Shown one piece after another: positions 755-26,270 of a stretch of DNA of 64,000 nucleotides. The notes beneath the pieces are model-generated. The model saw only the letters and a list, made by a program, of their open reading frames with translations, ran no database searches and was not told the DNA's origin. Source of the stretch: an uncultured cyanobacterium (GTDB taxonomy: Bacteria; Cyanobacteriota; Cyanobacteriia; Cyanobacteriales; Nostocaceae); assembly GCA_963772205.1 (NCBI GenBank), contig CAVYXS010000258.1:16325-80324 (forward strand), in the 5' to 3' direction. The position numbers and the translations under genes were made by a program. The stretch's first letter is position 1. Each line of letters opens with the position of its first letter.

Positions 755-1117
755 AAAATCATCAGTGAGGAGTTAGGAGTAATAATTCTCAATCTTAACT
801 CTCACTCTGAAGTGTAACTGTTTTCAATGCTTTGAAATACGGACATTGCCTAGGGACACAAGTTTTTTGTGTCCCTATTGCATCACTAAGTAGTCATCAG
901 CGACTAGGGAATCAGGACTAGTACTCTGTCTCATTAATTTTAATGGGTATGTAGTCAGCACTTTAGTGCTTTAATGAGCGATAAATCGCTCACTACGGAA
1001 CCATCATCATTAGTGCGATAGACCACTAGAGCGTCGGTCAAATTTCAACTACTTATTCCCAATATTCGTCGAAGATATATAAGAAAAAAAAACTAAATTC
1101 AGGAGCCAAAATTCAGA

Positions 1118-2239
1118 ATGTACGATAGTATCATTGTTGGTGCCGGACCTGCTGGTGGAACCGCTGCATATCATTTAGCCAAGCAGGGGCGCTCAGTATT
1201 AATTTTAGAAAAAGCATCTCTACCAAGATACAAACCCTGTGGCGGTGGTGTGTCGCCCATAGTCGCTCAATGGTTTGACTTTGACTTTAACCCAGCAATT
1301 TCAGCGAAAGTAGACACAGTTCGCTTCACCTGGAAATTAGGTGACGCCGTAGAAGCAAAAATCGGCATTAAAGAACCAATTTGGATGGTGCGCCGAGATA
1401 TTTTTGACCATTTCTTAGTGCAACAAGCTCAGAAGCAAGGCGCTGAATTGCAAGACAATACAGAAGTCACTGGTATTGAATTTCAAGGCGACTATTGGCA
1501 AGTTAATACAGCCAATGGTCCAGTTTCTGGGCGCTACTTAATTGGGGCTGATGGTGCTAAAGGTTCGATGGGAAAATGGCTAGGTTTAAAAGACCGTAAA
1601 CGACGTTTAGCAGGAGCATTGGAGGCAGAAGTAGCGACAGATGTACCGAATAAATCTATGGCACATTTCGAGTTTGGCTTAATCAAAAACGGCTACGTCT
1701 GGAACTTTCCCAAGGATGATGGTTATTCGATTGGTATTGGTACGTTCATTGGCAGTGAACCCCAAAACTTTAAGAAAATTTTGGATGAGTACGCCCAATC
1801 ATTTAATATTGATATCAAAACTAGCAAGCAGTATGGTCATCCCATTTGCCTATGGGATGGTAAGCAAAAGCTACATAGCCAAAATGCAATTTTGGCTGGA
1901 GAAGCCGCTTCTGTAGTTGATCCCTTGACAGCAGAAGGAATTCGCCCCTCAATTTTCAGCGGTTTGCTAGCAGCAGAAGCGATTAATCAAGCACTTTCTG
2001 GTAATCTCAATGCTTTAGAAGAATACACCCATGCTATTAATGAACAATGGGGTTCTGATATGGCGTGGGCACAAAAAATAGCTGCCGGATTTTATCGTTT
2101 TTCCAACATTAGTTATAAAACTGGTGTTAAAAGTGCCTCTGTCACCAAAATTATGGGTCAAATTTTGTGTGGAGAACTGCGTTATGCCGATATTGCCGGT
2201 CGCGCCCTCAAGCGTTTAATCCCTGGCTTTGGTGGTTAG
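1118..2239 (+). CDS. geranylgeranyl reductase family FAD-dependent oxidoreductase
   Basis: N-terminal Rossmann motif IIVGAGPAGGTAAYHLAKQGRSVLILEK, 373 aa, similar to ChlP/GG-reductase family. Confidence 0.75.
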   Translation: MYDSIIVGAGPAGGTAAYHLAKQGRSVLILEKASLPRYKPCGGGVSPIVAQWFDFDFNPAISAKVDTVRFTWKLGDAVEAKIGIKEPIWMVRRDIFDHFLVQQAQKQGAELQDNTEVTGIEFQGDYWQVNTANGPVSGRYLIGADGAKGSMGKWLGLKDRKRRLAGALEAEVATDVPNKSMAHFEFGLIKNGYVWNFPKDDGYSIGIGTFIGSEPQNFKKILDEYAQSFNIDIKTSKQYGHPICLWDGKQKLHSQNAILAGEAASVVDPLTAEGIRPSIFSGLLAAEAINQALSGNLNALEEYTHAINEQWGSDMAWAQKIAAGFYRFSNISYKTGVKSASVTKIMGQILCGELRYADIAGRALKRLIPGFGG

Positions 2240-2389
2240 TTGTAACTCATTAGGAGTTTTCCACAAATAAGCTATTTCATCTTGTGGGGTGGATAGTAAA
2301 GCCAGCCCAGGACGGGCGAGACGCCCATCCCACAAGAATTCATTGGCTCAGGACTGAGACAACTGGCATATTATTTTAAATTCGTAAAT

Positions 2390-2842: not shown

Positions 2843-4367
2843 AATTTCCTTACTTTCTCCAAACTGATAAACTCTGTCGTCTTATGCCAGTATTTAGCTT
2901 CTTAGCGTCTGCACAAGGGTACTTGTCCTCTAGGATGAGGACTTAATTCCTGCTGATCATGGGTAGGTCAAGAGCCTCTATTATGGTTGTTTACAACAAA
3001 TTAGAGGTTATGGCTGTCACAAGCATTAATTTCGGTGATTTTACGGCACTTTTAACCATCATTCGCCATCAGAAATAAATTTTTTTTCTTTTGGCGCTAC
3101 TGTAGCGGTATAACTTTAAGCCACCTTTACAAATTGTTTGAGTTCTACTACATCTAAGTTGTAGATCCCAGAAATTGCAGGTTTTCCAATTTCAGTGCTT
3201 GTCTTTCTTGCCAGTGATTTATAGGTTATTCCCTACTCATCCTGCCAAGCTTCGGACAGCATAGTATTTGAATGGGGTACTACAGCTATACACCCTTTTC
3301 TCCTGCCAATAGAGACGTGAAATTTCTTGTCTCTACATTACGAATAAACAAAGCAGTAGTAGCCGCGCTTATACGGCTATTGAGACATGTTTTGTGACTT
3401 CGTAATTTCATATTAAATACTAGCATGGACTAATAATAGCAAAATAGTTGTTTTATTTTGAATTAAAATTGCTAGTAAAGTTTTATTCTAAATCTCCTAG
3501 CTCACGGAAGGTAAAAAGCGGTGAGGATTGTTCTAGGGCTTGTTTGAGGTAGTGAGTATTGCGGCTAGGCTTTTATAAAAATTCATCTAATTTAGACGAG
3601 CAGTTTTGAGAGTGAGTTACATCCTTTGATTGTCTTGATTGTCAGGATTTTGCTGTCTGTTGATCCGCGTGAGCCAAAAAGTGGTCATAGTATTGTGCAT
3701 ATCTCTGGGAAGAATAAATTTTCCCACATATATATAGTGCTTTGTTGCCACCACCAAATGTTCATCATCAGATTTAACAATTCTATATAACCAAAAATTC
3801 CCCCTTAGTGAATGATTAAGGGATTTTGGCGCCAGTGGCTGCCAATCCTTTTGACATGAATATCTCGTGATAACCTAAAGTAGATTTAATTTGCTGATTT
3901 TTTCTCTTCAGGGGATGATCATAACTCCCTTGAAGAATGTAACTCTTCTCGCGGACACTGCATAACAGGTAAATTCACAAGAGTCAAGAGTCAAAAGAAA
4001 GGAATAGGCAAGAGGCTATAGGAAATAAATATTTTCCTATAGTCGCGTACCCATTCCCGATAGCCTTGGGAATTTGGACTAGTGGACTTTGAGAAACAAA
4101 GTGGAGGGGATTTAAATTTGCAGCGGTAATTACTTTTTTTGCTGTTGCGGCTGGGAGATTGAGACAAATCTCGGCGATCGCCATTCTACAACTAAAATTT
4201 TCATGGTGATCCTGAAACTAAAATCACTAAGTCTTTAATTATCAGCTTATTAACAGCTAACCTAGAATCTAGGGCAAAAAAAGTATAGCTCATTTTTGAG
4301 AGTAACCTGTCTGTAGTCGTGATTTCTCAGGTGGGTATGGTAAGCTTGAAAATTTTGGTTGGTGCTA

Positions 4368-6631: not shown

Positions 6632-7525
6632 TTAATACTTGTCATAATTGGTTGAATTATCTACATCGTCATCTGGCTTGGCGATCGGTTTGTATTCTAC
6701 ATAATCAGTGGGGATCGCGTCATCATCATCGCGTTCTCTGCGAGGAGTTGAGTCACTAGGGGGACGACGCCTCCTGGGTTTGGGGGTAACATCTTCCTCA
6801 CGACTTTCTGGACGCTGAGGGCTGTTGTTACCACGACGGGGAGGTTTTCTGACTTCTCCTGCAGAACTGTCCCAATCATCAACTTCCCTAGGGGCTGAAC
6901 CCCAATCATCTTCTTGTGTTTCGGGACGACTTGCTGGACGCCCTGAACTCCGCCGGCGCGTTTTATCAGTAGATTCCGGCTTTTCTGTGCTGTTGCGCCG
7001 TTCAGAACGACGGGGTGGTTGATCTTCATAGTAGTCATCGCGAGGCGATCGCTCATCCCTGCTACCTCGAATTCGCGCACGCGGGGGGCGTTCCTCGTCT
7101 TCATAAGGTAATGGTTCTAATTCTGCGTCTACCTCGGCTTTATACCTCCGCTCATAGGAATATTTATTACTTACTGGTCGGTCTTCGTCTACAATCGGCG
7201 TATTGCGCTTGGCTTGCTGGGTGGCTATACTTCGCAGTCGAATACTTTCAACTGCAAAGAATACGGTTGTGCCGACTAAAAGCAGCTGACCAAATTGTAA
7301 AATTGGGTCTAGTCGCCAACCTTGGAAGATCAGAATAAAACCACAAAGTAAGCCTACCGCCGCAAAAAATATATCTTGATCTCGTGACAGTTCGGGACGC
7401 ACAGTCCTCAGAAAATACAGTGCTGCTCCAGACACAGCTAGGAAAATTCCTAGAATACTGGCTGAGTTCGCCCCAAAATTTACCTGAGCCAGAATACTGG
7501 CTGAATTCAGCCAAAAATTTATCAT
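6632..7525 (-). CDS. ycf66: Ycf66 family membrane protein with long charged (R/D/E/P-rich) C-terminal tail
   Basis: N-terminus NSASILGIFLAVSGAALYFLRTVRPELSRDQDIFFAAVGLLCGFILIFQGW matches the Ycf66_N domain. The remaining ~200 aa are low-complexity RRxE/D. Confidence 0.75.
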   Translation of the reverse strand: MINFWLNSASILAQVNFGANSASILGIFLAVSGAALYFLRTVRPELSRDQDIFFAAVGLLCGFILIFQGWRLDPILQFGQLLLVGTTVFFAVESIRLRSIATQQAKRNTPIVDEDRPVSNKYSYERRYKAEVDAELEPLPYEDEERPPRARIRGSRDERSPRDDYYEDQPPRRSERRNSTEKPESTDKTRRRSSGRPASRPETQEDDWGSAPREVDDWDSSAGEVRKPPRRGNNSPQRPESREEDVTPKPRRRRPPSDSTPRRERDDDDAIPTDYVEYKPIAKPDDDVDNSTNYDKY

Positions 7526-8207
7526 AAAACCTCGCGGGATGTGGGAAACTCAGCTTTTAAAAGCTGAGAGGGAAACGGCACGAGCGAACGCCACTTGCTA
7601 CAACTTTGGGAACCAAAGCAATGCAGTGACTCCTTTAGTCGCAGTCCCCTTACGGGGGGGTGGTAGATAGAGGAACAGTATTTACCACCTTCCCTGTATG
7701 CCGAGAATCGCCTTGCTGTTCCAGTAATGTTAGCTTAGACCTGTTATCAGAAGCTCAGTAGGCTGAAAGCACTGTTCCAGTGACCTTAGAACTGTTTAAC
7801 TTACAGCGACAGAGCGGGGAACTAGCTACGCATTCCGAGGTGTCGTGACTCAAATAACGGCTACCCTTAGACTACAATCAGGGTGGTCTGGTCAGTACGG
7901 CTTGCTTGATTTCTCTTACAAGCCCAGTCCCTTTAGGGCTGGGTTACTGACTGCTGTTTTCCCAATATCAAATCTATGTTAGCGAGTCACAATTAAAATC
8001 ACTACTCTAATCCGGCACAATAATATAGATTAAAGCTTCAAAGCATCTAGTAAAGAAGCTCTGAAGCTATGTACCTCAAACTAAAAAGCTGATATCTGTC
8101 AGGTAAGTATACCTTGTCCTGGGTTGGAGGAATTGATGCTCCTAGGGGATTAAGGTAAATAGCTGACAGACAATCGATTATGAGGGTCTAATTAACTCCC
8201 TAAATGA

Positions 8208-23957: not shown

Positions 23958-24127
23958 TCAGTTGTCAGTGCTGAGTCCTGAGTTTTCAACTGGAACCGCA
24001 AGGAGTCCCACACCGAAATCTCTGATTCGGTGTTGGGAGGAATTGCGGGCTTGTTTTGTTGCGTCCTGCGACCATTTTCTTGCACAGCAAGAAGAGGTAG
24101 GAGGACAGCGACAAAACAAGCAATCTT

Positions 24128-25225
24128 TTATGCTTTTACACATAGCTTTGTACTCCGTTTGATAAGTTGAACTTTTGCTGGGCTGAATTGCCCAATTCTG
24201 CGCCAGTTGTGGTCATACACAGAAACATTTTTAGTTTTTGGAGTCTGCGTATAGCCACCAATCCAGCCAATATAAAATTTACCCGCTTTTTCAGCTTTCA
24301 CTAAGTCACCAGAACGTAATCCGAATGGCGTAATTGTTCCACCTTTGCGCTTTCTGTTGCCAGGAATATCTTTAACAGGGTTCTCGAAATGAAGCTGACG
24401 ACGGAATAGATTTGGACGCGCAATTATGCGGAATGGTGCAGGTGTAATAGCAACGAATCCTACCCAGCGATGTCCCCGACTATTAGCAGTGTGGAATTTC
24501 TCAAACCGCATGAAGTTGCTAGATGCTAATGCAATCCCGTCATGAGCATGAGTCTCTGGAGTTTGTTTTGATTTGTCTTTCTTGTCTTTAGATAATCCTA
24601 ATTGCTGCCTGAGTATTGAAGTCTGCCACCCTTCTTGTGTATTGGTTGGTACAATTTCACAGAGCCATTCCAGCATCACTTTTTGACCAACCATCACAGG
24701 ACTAAAACCTTTGTCGCCTTTCGCTTTGATGTATTCGTAGGTGATTTGAGTTACAGGAAATAATTTGACTAATTCTTTGGTAATTCGTAATTCTAATTCC
24801 TTGTTAGCGCGAATACTGGGAGGCAATTTATTCTGTTTGCGGTTGTTAAACCTTTTTTGACGGTGCGCCCTTTGATTAAACGTTACTTTGCGATTTATCC
24901 TTCTACCTCGTCTAGCACGTCTCAATAATCGTCTACCATCCATCTTTTTGGTGACATCTGAAAATGGCAATATTAGATGTGCCATAAATAATGTGAATTT
25001 AACAGACTGGACACCAACGCCAGTAAACTTTTTACCAGGGTCTAATCCCAAAGCTATTGATTGAGTGTCATAACCAGACGGTTCCACTAATAGCTGAATG
25101 CCAAAAATATTGAGGTCATTCTGTACAATCTTGGCTTTACCTTCCTTAAGCCAACGTCTAGCTCTACTGGCTTTTGTTGGCATCATGGGTTTACCGTTTT
25201 TATCTAACACTGGAACACGAATCAT
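24128..25225 (-). CDS. isrB: IsrB-like OMEGA RNA-guided nickase (IscB homolog lacking the HNH domain, IS200/IS605 superfamily)
   Basis: N-terminal RRXRR/PLMP domain MIRVPVLDKNGKPMMPTKASRARRWLKEGKAKIV; RuvC-I IALGLDPGKKFTGVGV; Arg-rich bridge helix RRLLRRARRGRRINRKVTFNQRAHRQKRFNNRK; RuvC-II ITYEYIKA; RuvC-III THAHDGIALASS. No CxxC…H…N HNH insertion between RuvC-II and III. 365 aa. Confidence 0.8.
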   Translation of the reverse strand: MIRVPVLDKNGKPMMPTKASRARRWLKEGKAKIVQNDLNIFGIQLLVEPSGYDTQSIALGLDPGKKFTGVGVQSVKFTLFMAHLILPFSDVTKKMDGRRLLRRARRGRRINRKVTFNQRAHRQKRFNNRKQNKLPPSIRANKELELRITKELVKLFPVTQITYEYIKAKGDKGFSPVMVGQKVMLEWLCEIVPTNTQEGWQTSILRQQLGLSKDKKDKSKQTPETHAHDGIALASSNFMRFEKFHTANSRGHRWVGFVAITPAPFRIIARPNLFRRQLHFENPVKDIPGNRKRKGGTITPFGLRSGDLVKAEKAGKFYIGWIGGYTQTPKTKNVSVYDHNWRRIGQFSPAKVQLIKRSTKLCVKA

Positions 25226-25451
25226 GGAGATAATCCTCTCGTGTAAGTTGTAAGTCCCTTAGCTCACCATTACCAAAATGTCCTTTCTGCAAGCACCACT
25301 AATCAGATGGTTTGTAAATAATCCAGACTCGGGAAACATCTGGAAGTACGTATCAGGTAATGGCTTGTGAGCAGTAGTCATCTCTTAGTTGCAAGCTGAT
25401 TCTTGCAAGCCTACACTGCACCGGAGGTCAGTGTAGGTAGTTGACTTGTCC
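25226..25451 (-). ncRNA. candidate omega-RNA (guide RNA scaffold) of the IsrB element
   Basis: Immediately 5' of isrB on the same strand. Minus-strand sequence has strong hairpins (CCTACACTG-N10-CAGTGTAGG; CTTGCAAGaatcagCTTGCAAG) and a long-range helix GCTCAC…CCATTACC / GGTAATGG-TGAGC. This is the usual omega-RNA position for IscB/IsrB. Confidence 0.5.
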
Positions 25452-26270
25452 TCATCCCCCAATCTCCACAAGCAGCCGATTAATGACAACCGCATCATCG
25501 GCGTTAGGAACCTGAGCCAGATAAGTTTGGAAGTCCTCAGCCGCTTGGGAATAATGACCAAGTTGATAGTAAAGAAGCCCGCGATCGCGCAATTCTATGC
25601 TGACATCAGGAAACAGCAGCAAAATGCGTTCCACCGCCGCGAGACTTTTTAATAAATTCTGCTGTTTGAGGTAAATATATTTTAAATTCGTCAGCATCCG
25701 TGCTAAAAACTGCCGATTACTCACCGTGGCTAAAAATTCCGGTTTTAGTGTCACAGGTTGCTGAAACATTCGCGAAAGCCGTTCTTGACAATCTTGTGGA
25801 AATATGACCTCACCTCGATTAAATGCATCAACAAAAATTTCCACATCGCAAATATCTGGGCGAATCAAGAAATGACCAGGCATTCCCACCCCCACCATCG
25901 GAAAACCAATTCGTCGAGACACTTCCAGATAAACCAGCGCCAAAGTAATTGGAATTCCCAGCCGACGGTCAATTACATCATTAAAAAAGCTATTGCGAGG
26001 GTCGTAGTAGTCTGTTTTATTCCCAGAAAACCCCAAATCTTCGTAGATATATTTATTGATACATTTAATCACCCGCAACGGGTAGCGCGACTCAGGCAAG
26101 CGTTCTTCTAGTTCCACTGCCATTGTATCCAGTCCATGAATGTATTCTTCTGGATCAAGGTCGGGATATTCTTCTTGAGCAATATACAAAGCTGCCTTTG
26201 CAAAGTCAATATGCTCGTCAGGTTGCTGAATTTCCTGGTAAAAATATTGTCTCGCTGACGAGAAATTCAT
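25452..26270 (-). CDS. SirB1/transglutaminase-like family protein with C-terminal TPR-like region (UPF0162)
   Basis: 272 aa, motif GFPMVGVGMPGHFLIRP typical of the transglutaminase-like/SirB1 family. Confidence 0.6.
   Translation of the reverse strand: MNFSSARQYFYQEIQQPDEHIDFAKAALYIAQEEYPDLDPEEYIHGLDTMAVELEERLPESRYPLRVIKCINKYIYEDLGFSGNKTDYYDPRNSFFNDVIDRRLGIPITLALVYLEVSRRIGFPMVGVGMPGHFLIRPDICDVEIFVDAFNRGEVIFPQDCQERLSRMFQQPVTLKPEFLATVSNRQFLARMLTNLKYIYLKQQNLLKSLAAVERILLLFPDVSIELRDRGLLYYQLGHYSQAAEDFQTYLAQVPNADDAVVINRLLVEIGG

Follow-up and report, generated by a model that had tools for sequence, protein, structure and literature searches.

Introduction

The omega-RNAs of IsrB proteins combine a 20-nucleotide (nt) guide with a scaffold that has four stems and as many as eight stem-loops (Hirano et al. 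2022, PMC9581776). Their core is made up of the stems S1-S4 and the stem-loops SL1, SL2, SL4, SL5 and SL7, and SL3, SL6 and SL8 are peripheral (PMC9581776). They also contain two pseudoknots, of which the adaptor pseudoknot joins SL2 and SL5 and the nexus pseudoknot joins SL4 to the strand lying between S2 and SL7, and their terminal hairpin holds the Shine-Dalgarno sequence just before the open reading frame (ORF) (PMC9581776). The target-adjacent motif (TAM) is TTGA for DtIsrB, the IsrB of Desulfovirgula thermocuniculi (8DMB), and NTG for the IsrBs of Dolichospermum and Crocosphaera (PMC9581776). As to the IscB-type elements, Meers et al. stated that the scaffolds are the right ends of the transposons and that the guides lie outside; transcription must start outside the element, and the upstream genes tend to be co-oriented. 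HEARO is an omega-RNA of this IscB type (Meers et al.).

The locus described here lies in a 64-kb window, that is, the whole stretch of 64,000 nucleotides that was analysed. Positions 25445-25226 of the minus strand of this window are assigned, with a probability of about 93%, to an IsrB omega-RNA scaffold within a 1456-bp non-autonomous IS200/IS605-type element (23990-25445) which also bears isrB. Judged from sequence comparison, a genuine omega-RNA is encoded in the structured region in front of isrB; it is a well-understood kind of element and leaves the understanding of OMEGA systems unchanged, and the intergenic region would be a guide-RNA gene, not spacer DNA. What goes beyond routine annotation is only the polymorphism between empty and filled sites and a gap in the coverage of Rfam.

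The closest known systems are the DtIsrB omega-RNA and the Dolichospermum and Crocosphaera IsrB omega-RNAs (PMC9581776). Like the RNA of this locus, the DtIsrB omega-RNA is placed upstream of isrB with its guide at the 5' end and has S1-S4, SL1, SL2, SL4, SL5, SL6 and SL7, both pseudoknots and the hairpin SL7 with the ribosome-binding site, this helix-for-helix mapping following the published description and not a sequence alignment; the TTGA/NTG motif is also shared, and the proteins are homologous over their full length. However, the DtIsrB omega-RNA is 262 nt long, compared with the 220-nt scaffold here, and counterparts of SL3 and SL8 were not found in the clade of the window. The window RNA and its relatives are therefore apparently a compact 220-nt cyanobacterial IsrB scaffold subgroup of a known RNA class, lacking SL3 and SL8. 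The co-oriented SirB1-like gene upstream, the scaffold at the end of the element and the guide outside it all fit the statements of Meers et al.

More distant systems share some of these features. In the crRNA:tracrRNA of Cas9, too, the guide lies on the 5' side of a scaffold that includes a nexus-like helix; the RuvC effector is homologous to Cas9, and the target motif is 3' of the protospacer in both. Unlike the RNA of Cas9, the IsrB-type RNA is made as one transcript, and the insertion site determines its guide, with neither a CRISPR array nor adaptation; its scaffold, which is much larger, takes the place of the REC lobe, and IsrB only nicks. The omega-RNA (reRNA) of TnpB (ISDra2) is also encoded by an IS200/IS605 element, takes its scaffold from the transposon end and its guide from the flank, and targets the excised donor joint. 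On the other hand, the TnpB RNA maps to the 3' end of its gene and has the guide at the 3' end of the RNA; it is folded in an unrelated way, and TnpB itself is Cas12-like.

The Guide-RNA Scaffold and Its Homologues

Relatives were collected by a protein scan with one genome per species, which gave 37 loci, all from filamentous cyanobacteria. They fall into two groups, clade A being 71-92% identical to the window protein and clade B about 50%. Alignments were made of 14 clade A and 16 clade B sequences, 30 altogether. In 29 homologous isrB loci of heterocyst-forming cyanobacteria there is a common element of about 220 nt which starts abruptly at GTCAACTACC and extends to the isrB start codon, and the scaffold at 25445-25226 and the isrB AUG at 25225, both on the same strand, have the same arrangement in these 29 other loci. 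The motif GTCAA[CT]TACC is located 214-343 nt upstream of the gene in the 29 loci, and identity between loci begins exactly at this motif, the 25 nt 5' of it being unrelated between loci. Since the flanks 5' of GTCAAC are unrelated in all loci, a constant scaffold is separated from a variable flank at this point, just as the earlier note had expected from a comparison of isrB copies. The extent which that note had given, 25226-25451, holds for 25445-25226, and the remaining positions, 25446-25451, are part of the variable flank with the guide.

The nhmmer scaffold profile finds exactly one copy in the window (25445-25223, E = 4e-65), and the profiles of clade A and clade B detect each other (E = 1e-7 to 1e-16). 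No second scaffold copy was detected in the window by the nhmmer profiles of both clades, and a HEARO copy in the window, which is described below, was likewise undetected by them. A decayed copy without the guide-adaptor domain of the RNA is present at 2846-3000 of locus L001. The coordinates of the scaffold, its parts and its surroundings are given in Table 1.

Table 1. Features of the IsrB element and its flanks (window positions; RNA elements are read on the minus strand).
Feature	Position	Strand	Description
SirB1-like gene, 272 aa	ends 25452	-	Transglutaminase-like core and TPR repeats
Putative guide, 20 nt, AGAUUGGGGGAUGAGGACAA	25446-25465	-	In the flank, outside the element; overlaps the final codons and stop of the SirB1-like gene
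Whole element, 1456 bp	23990-25445	-	Non-autonomous, IS200/IS605-type (ISC1-like); omega-RNA scaffold, isrB and 3' hairpins
Omega-RNA scaffold, 220 nt	25226-25445	-	From GUCAACUACC to the last base before AUG; by nhmmer, alignments and covariation counts
Guide-adaptor domain	25377-25445	-	Contains S1, SL1 and SL2; helices 1-3 covary
S1	25445-25439 with 25383-25377	-	GUCAACU with AGAUGAC
SL1	25437-25410	-	Hairpin CCTACACTG/CAGTGTAGG
SL2	25408-25389	-	TTGCAAG-AATCAG-CTTGCAA; loop AAUCAG at 25401-25396
Core	25260-25376	-	Enclosed by S2 and S3; helices 4-10 covary
S2 (nexus)	25376-25368 with 25266-25260	-	
S3	25364-25353 with 25276-25266	-	8 of 11 pairs compensatory
S4 and SL4	25349-25314	-	Inside the core
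SL5	25311-25295	-	Inside the core
SL5 loop CUGAUU	25301-25306	-	Adaptor pseudoknot with SL2 loop AAUCAG (25396-25401), exact complement
SL6	25293-25283	-	Inside the core
AGGGA between S2 and SL7	25255-25259	-	Putative nexus pseudoknot with UCCC(G) of the SL4 loop (25330-25334)
SL7	25236-25226	-	GGA-UUAUC-UCC; abuts AUG, holds the ribosome-binding purine run
isrB, 365 aa	24128-25225	-	PLMP/RRXRR N-terminus; RuvC nuclease without HNH insertion
Long hairpin, 73 nt	24049-24121	-	Near-perfect, directly after the isrB stop; optional module
Subterminal imperfect hairpin	23996-24048	-	Far end of the element; kept with compensatory variants in 24 loci
TTGA	23986-23989	-	Just outside the element; insertion target, predicted TAM

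Fold and Covariation

The structures were drawn by hand on the alignment of each clade, that of clade B independently, and the pairs were counted. In clade A (14 sequences) there are 64 pairs, 96.4% of the positions compared are paired and 29 of the 64 have changes on both sides (compensatory changes), and in clade B (16 sequences) the 70 pairs are 96.2% paired, 34 of them being compensatory. None of 500 shuffles of clade A reaches the observed values on four of five measures. When the 3' partners were slid by 1-3 columns as a control, clade A gave 31-44% paired and 3-7 compensatory pairs, and such controls overall gave 31-48% paired. If the helices were chance complementarity in an intergenic spacer, the weak folding of the single sequence would be in keeping with it, because this fold is not significant (z = -1.57; 11 of 200 shuffles fold equally well). 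The same helices, however, recur with compensatory changes in 30 sequences of two clades, so chance is refuted by the comparative data and keeps a practically negligible probability; that is, it is excluded by covariation and not by single-sequence folding energy. Some G.U pairs are invariant, for example those of columns 91-238 and 101-229 (A2) and of columns 1-97 and 2-96 (A3). Because the complementary strand would have A.C mismatches at these positions, the fold is that of an RNA read on the isrB strand.

All three helices that the earlier note had described on the minus strand are present there, and the region is structured as it had said. Its 9-bp hairpin is SL1, and in the variants CCUACACUG, CCCCUACC and CCCCGCCC of this stem-loop the 3' arm matches in each. 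The hairpin which had been ascribed to a self-complementary octamer exists (SL2), although the octamer CTTGCAAG does not fold on itself; two copies of TTGCAA pair with each other instead, and this pairing is supported by covariation, for example CTTGAAAG...CTTTCAA. The long-range bipartite helix is also real, consisting of GCTCA...TGAGC and CCATTACC/GGTAATGG (25372-25356 with 25274-25262), but encloses 81 nt and not about 75. As a whole, the reading of the region as an omega-RNA is borne out by a covarying fold with the published architecture of IsrB omega-RNAs, by a full-length IsrB encoded downstream and by the 29 homologous loci.

The adaptor pseudoknot has 6 pairs which are 97.6% paired. 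Compensatory changes from U-A to C-G are seen in clade A, with AACCAG/CUGGUU in L004 and L005 and AGCCAG/CUGGUU in L013, and in clade B UCACGG/UCGUGA is changed to UCAUAA/UUGUGA in L024 and L027. As for the nexus pseudoknot (SL4 loop UCCCU with AGGGA), complementarity is found in all 30 sequences, and one compensatory change, C-G to U-A, occurs in L003; the copy of the window has only 4 pairs, with a G.A mismatch in place of the fifth. Support for this putative pseudoknot across the family is thin, being that single compensatory change. At the third pair of SL7, 10 clade A sequences have A-U and 4 have U-A, and clade B has G-C.

An outer pairing proposed by RNAalifold, GUC/CU at the 5' end with GGGAC, was rejected in favour of S1, since clade B keeps GUCAACU/AGUUGGU and S1 corresponds to P1 of HEARO; the GGGA of that pairing is explained better by the nexus pseudoknot.

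The conservation could also be sought at the level of DNA, as transposon-end signals in the form of single-strand hairpins for TnpA, with the RNA fold being incidental. SL1 is indeed situated at the tip of the element like a subterminal hairpin of IS200/IS605, and SL1 is dispensable for nicking and its region has been linked to transposition (Hirano et al., PMC9581776). TnpA signals, however, span a few tens of bases at the ends, whereas the covariation here spans 220 nt and takes in helices with about 80-100 nt between their arms as well as two pseudoknots of the loop-loop or loop-strand kind, and the invariant G.U pairs are strand-specific, which is typical of RNA. It is thus very improbable that DNA signals account for the conservation, and the omega-RNA scaffold is retained as the reading of the region.

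Four clade A loci (L002, L006, L008 and L011) have insertions of about 45 nt in the loop of SL6. These fit a peripheral stem-loop and indicate the SL6 loop as a site tolerating extra sequence. Naturally compact scaffolds with such an insertion-tolerant loop are of some use for the engineering of IsrB nickases.

GC-rich hairpin insertions of about 45-90 nt are also present in L018, L020, L023 and L026 of clade B and in the 3' regions of L027 and L029, for example ...GCCGGGGAACCCGTCCACCGCAGTGGCTC...; the GC-rich insertions, which interrupt scaffolds or element tails that are conserved in other respects, resemble the miniature inserts or small dispersed repeats that such cyanobacteria typically contain.

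Relationship to HEARO

When the whole window was searched against Rfam at the gathering threshold, neither HEARO (RF02033) nor any other family matched the RNA upstream of isrB, and in the region itself at E <= 10 there was no HEARO, the sole match being noise (sR53, 12 bits). HEARO also matched none of 20 homologous loci. The gathering threshold of HEARO is 83 bits, which the scaffold does not reach, so by the present model it falls outside the family. The earlier note had named both a covariance-model match and the conservation of the stems in homologous loci as evidence to look for; the former is missing from the region in Rfam, and the latter is strong, so that its reading stands despite the absent match.

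The RNA nevertheless resembles HEARO in several respects, namely a 5' three-way junction starting with GUCAacuaCC, two hairpins inside its closing helix, and an outer helix and a long-range helix enclosing further hairpins. It differs in that its internal hairpins are shorter, that no hairpin lies between the outer and the long-range helices and that the partner protein is without HNH. In addition, a 75-position covariance model, R1, was built only from the guide-adaptor domains of clade A. R1 scores 86 bits on the window copy, and its second-best match in the 64-kb window, at 7951-7889 (19 bits, rough E 0.012), starts exactly at position 1 of a match of Rfam HEARO, that is, in exact register. 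From these likenesses the scaffold RNA is a relative in architecture, for which the Rfam model is too narrow. This is the annotation gap mentioned above: IsrB-type omega-RNAs of heterocystous cyanobacteria are missed by HEARO, so the loci go unannotated, and the two alignments could seed a model.

The HEARO match in question is of full length (129 bits) at 7724-7951 on the minus strand, and an IscB/IsrB gene is absent after it. The next ORF, at 6632-7525, encodes an unrelated low-complexity protein, and in the downstream sequence, as far as about 7600, a hairpin GGTGGTA...TACCACC follows the RNA at a distance of about 60 nt. The copy has the appearance of an omega-RNA standing alone or of an element without a gene (PATE-like).

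The IsrB Protein and the Flanking Genes

The sole Pfam match of the isrB product is PF14239 (RRXRR, E = 3e-48), and it has no HNH domain. It matches DtIsrB (PDB 8DMB) with E = 3.7e-50 over residues 2-361, that is, the full length, and the D, E and H..D residues of RuvC are aligned and conserved between the two; IscB structures match only its N-terminal third. On this homology the 365-aa ORF encodes a full-length IsrB. A second isrB was not found in the window by tblastn, and an exact-sequence look-up of the IsrB protein gave no match.

The SirB1-like gene is co-oriented with isrB and ends 6 nt before the scaffold. By a crude count of the other loci, the upstream ORFs are co-oriented in 16 of 23 and opposite in 7. 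In Plectonema cf. radiosum (L014), a tRNA array of about 17 genes (884-2318, minus strand) lies immediately upstream of the isrB element. Another decayed copy, in L028 (1362-1587 and 3001-3588), keeps an intact RNA, but its match to isrB is taken up again no earlier than residue 168 and some 1.4 kb further along, pointing to an interruption of the gene.

The Mobile Element, Its Empty Site and the Putative Guide

Alleles of the insertion site were found through an exact-sequence look-up of both flanking proteins, which led to metagenome contigs. The filled site is represented by two of them, L038 and L039, which both break off inside SL2. The empty site is recognized by spacing in a contig of ERZ1426850, where the two flanking genes are 38 nt apart, equal to the predicted 6 + 4 + 28; consequently, TTGA is part of the target, not of the element. 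It is also recognized by sequence in L040, where ...GAGGACAA is joined to TTGAAAAC... (also given as GAGGACAA joined to TTGAAAACTCAGG), and in the longer reading of this junction ...GTGGAGATTGGGGGATGAGGACAA is followed by TTGAAAACTCAGGACTCAGC..., which is identical to the two flanks of the window joined directly. Comparison of the empty and filled sites therefore defines an element of 1456 bp (23990-25445) with its boundary between 25446 and 25445 and with no target duplication. In this way the exact ends are fixed for a mobile element between two convergent chromosomal genes. Insertion before TTGA without duplication is the signature of IS200/IS605, as are hairpins near both ends. As to the transposase, tnpA is absent inside the element and was not found among ten short window ORFs (at least 100 aa) scanned individually, or among the best 25 families listed in a bulk family scan of 50 window ORFs. 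Because no tnpA was found in those ORFs, mobilisation would have to occur in trans, with a transposase encoded elsewhere.

The guide length of 20 nt was adopted from DtIsrB (PMC9581776). As the scaffold starts at 25445, the guide would be 25446-25465, in agreement with its earlier placement around 25440-25470, where it would overlap the SirB1-like gene at the 3' end. In the empty allele the sequence is AGATTGGGGGATGAGGACAA-TTGA, that is, the 20-mer derived from the flank and then TTGA. This TTGA is the same as the TAM measured for DtIsrB, and it also fits the NTG of the cyanobacterial IsrBs (PMC9581776). Guide match and TTGA together constitute a predicted IsrB target.

These results also bear on the explanation that the region acts solely in cis, as a 5' leader of the isrB mRNA which controls translation or stability through the hairpin with the ribosome-binding site, and not as a guide RNA. 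SL7 sequesters this site beside the AUG and covaries, and the promoter and terminator scan, in which counts were no higher than in shuffles, found neither a separate small-RNA promoter or terminator nor a convincing promoter or processing site, both of which would suit a leader. For such a function, however, a 220-nt fold with two pseudoknots matching a solved guide-RNA scaffold would be unneeded, and a leader would neither start exactly at the transposon end nor adjoin a flank whose empty-site counterpart bears the TAM of IsrB. That the region is nothing else than a leader is accordingly improbable; moreover, the roles of leader and guide are compatible and both were suggested by Hirano et al. 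(PMC9581776).

Both alleles of the exact insertion site are present in metagenome assemblies with identical flanking genes, the filled one in ERZ18629978 and ERZ27313167 and the empty one in ERZ18630797 and ERZ1426850, and the element is hence polymorphic in natural populations. The co-existing empty and filled alleles offer a concrete native target for homing tests. It is possible, although the odds are somewhat against it, that a currently active IsrB element has been caught here in a natural presence/absence polymorphism, with its own guide matching the empty allele beside TTGA. If this is true, the population would be a natural setting in which to ask whether a nickase, and not a double-strand cutter, drives restorative homing.

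Possible Mode of Action

Published work on relatives provides a model for transcription, protein binding, nicking and homing at this locus. By analogy, transcription would start outside the element, most likely by read-through from the co-oriented SirB1-like gene, and the 5' end of the transcript would contain about 20 nt of flanking DNA (25465-25446) serving as the guide. The remainder may fold into the compact scaffold (S1-S4, SL1, SL2, SL4, SL5, SL6, SL7 and two pseudoknots) and bind IsrB. The complex would then recognize DNA matching the guide and followed by TTGA, which is the junction left after excision or an allele that has never been filled. The lone RuvC domain would nick the matching DNA, and repair from a filled copy would restore the element (homing). 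Since SL7 holds the ribosome-binding site beside the AUG, binding of the protein may also damp the translation of isrB.

The Far End of the Element

The far (3') end of the element is what the TnpA convention calls the left end of the transposon. This end could be located in 24 loci, and all of them have a subterminal hairpin, then the last conserved motif (G)TTGA(A) and then unrelated DNA. The two hairpins of the window at 24049-24121 and 23996-24048 together fold with z = -9.7. The arms of the former covary between loci, and it is missing in L002, L004, L005, L030 and L035; it may represent a small insert or a module resembling a terminator. In L021, from about position 4290 of the locus and right after the TTGA of the element, a tandem array of the 21-nt unit GTTAACGGGAACCACTTCAGA is found in at least 7 copies.
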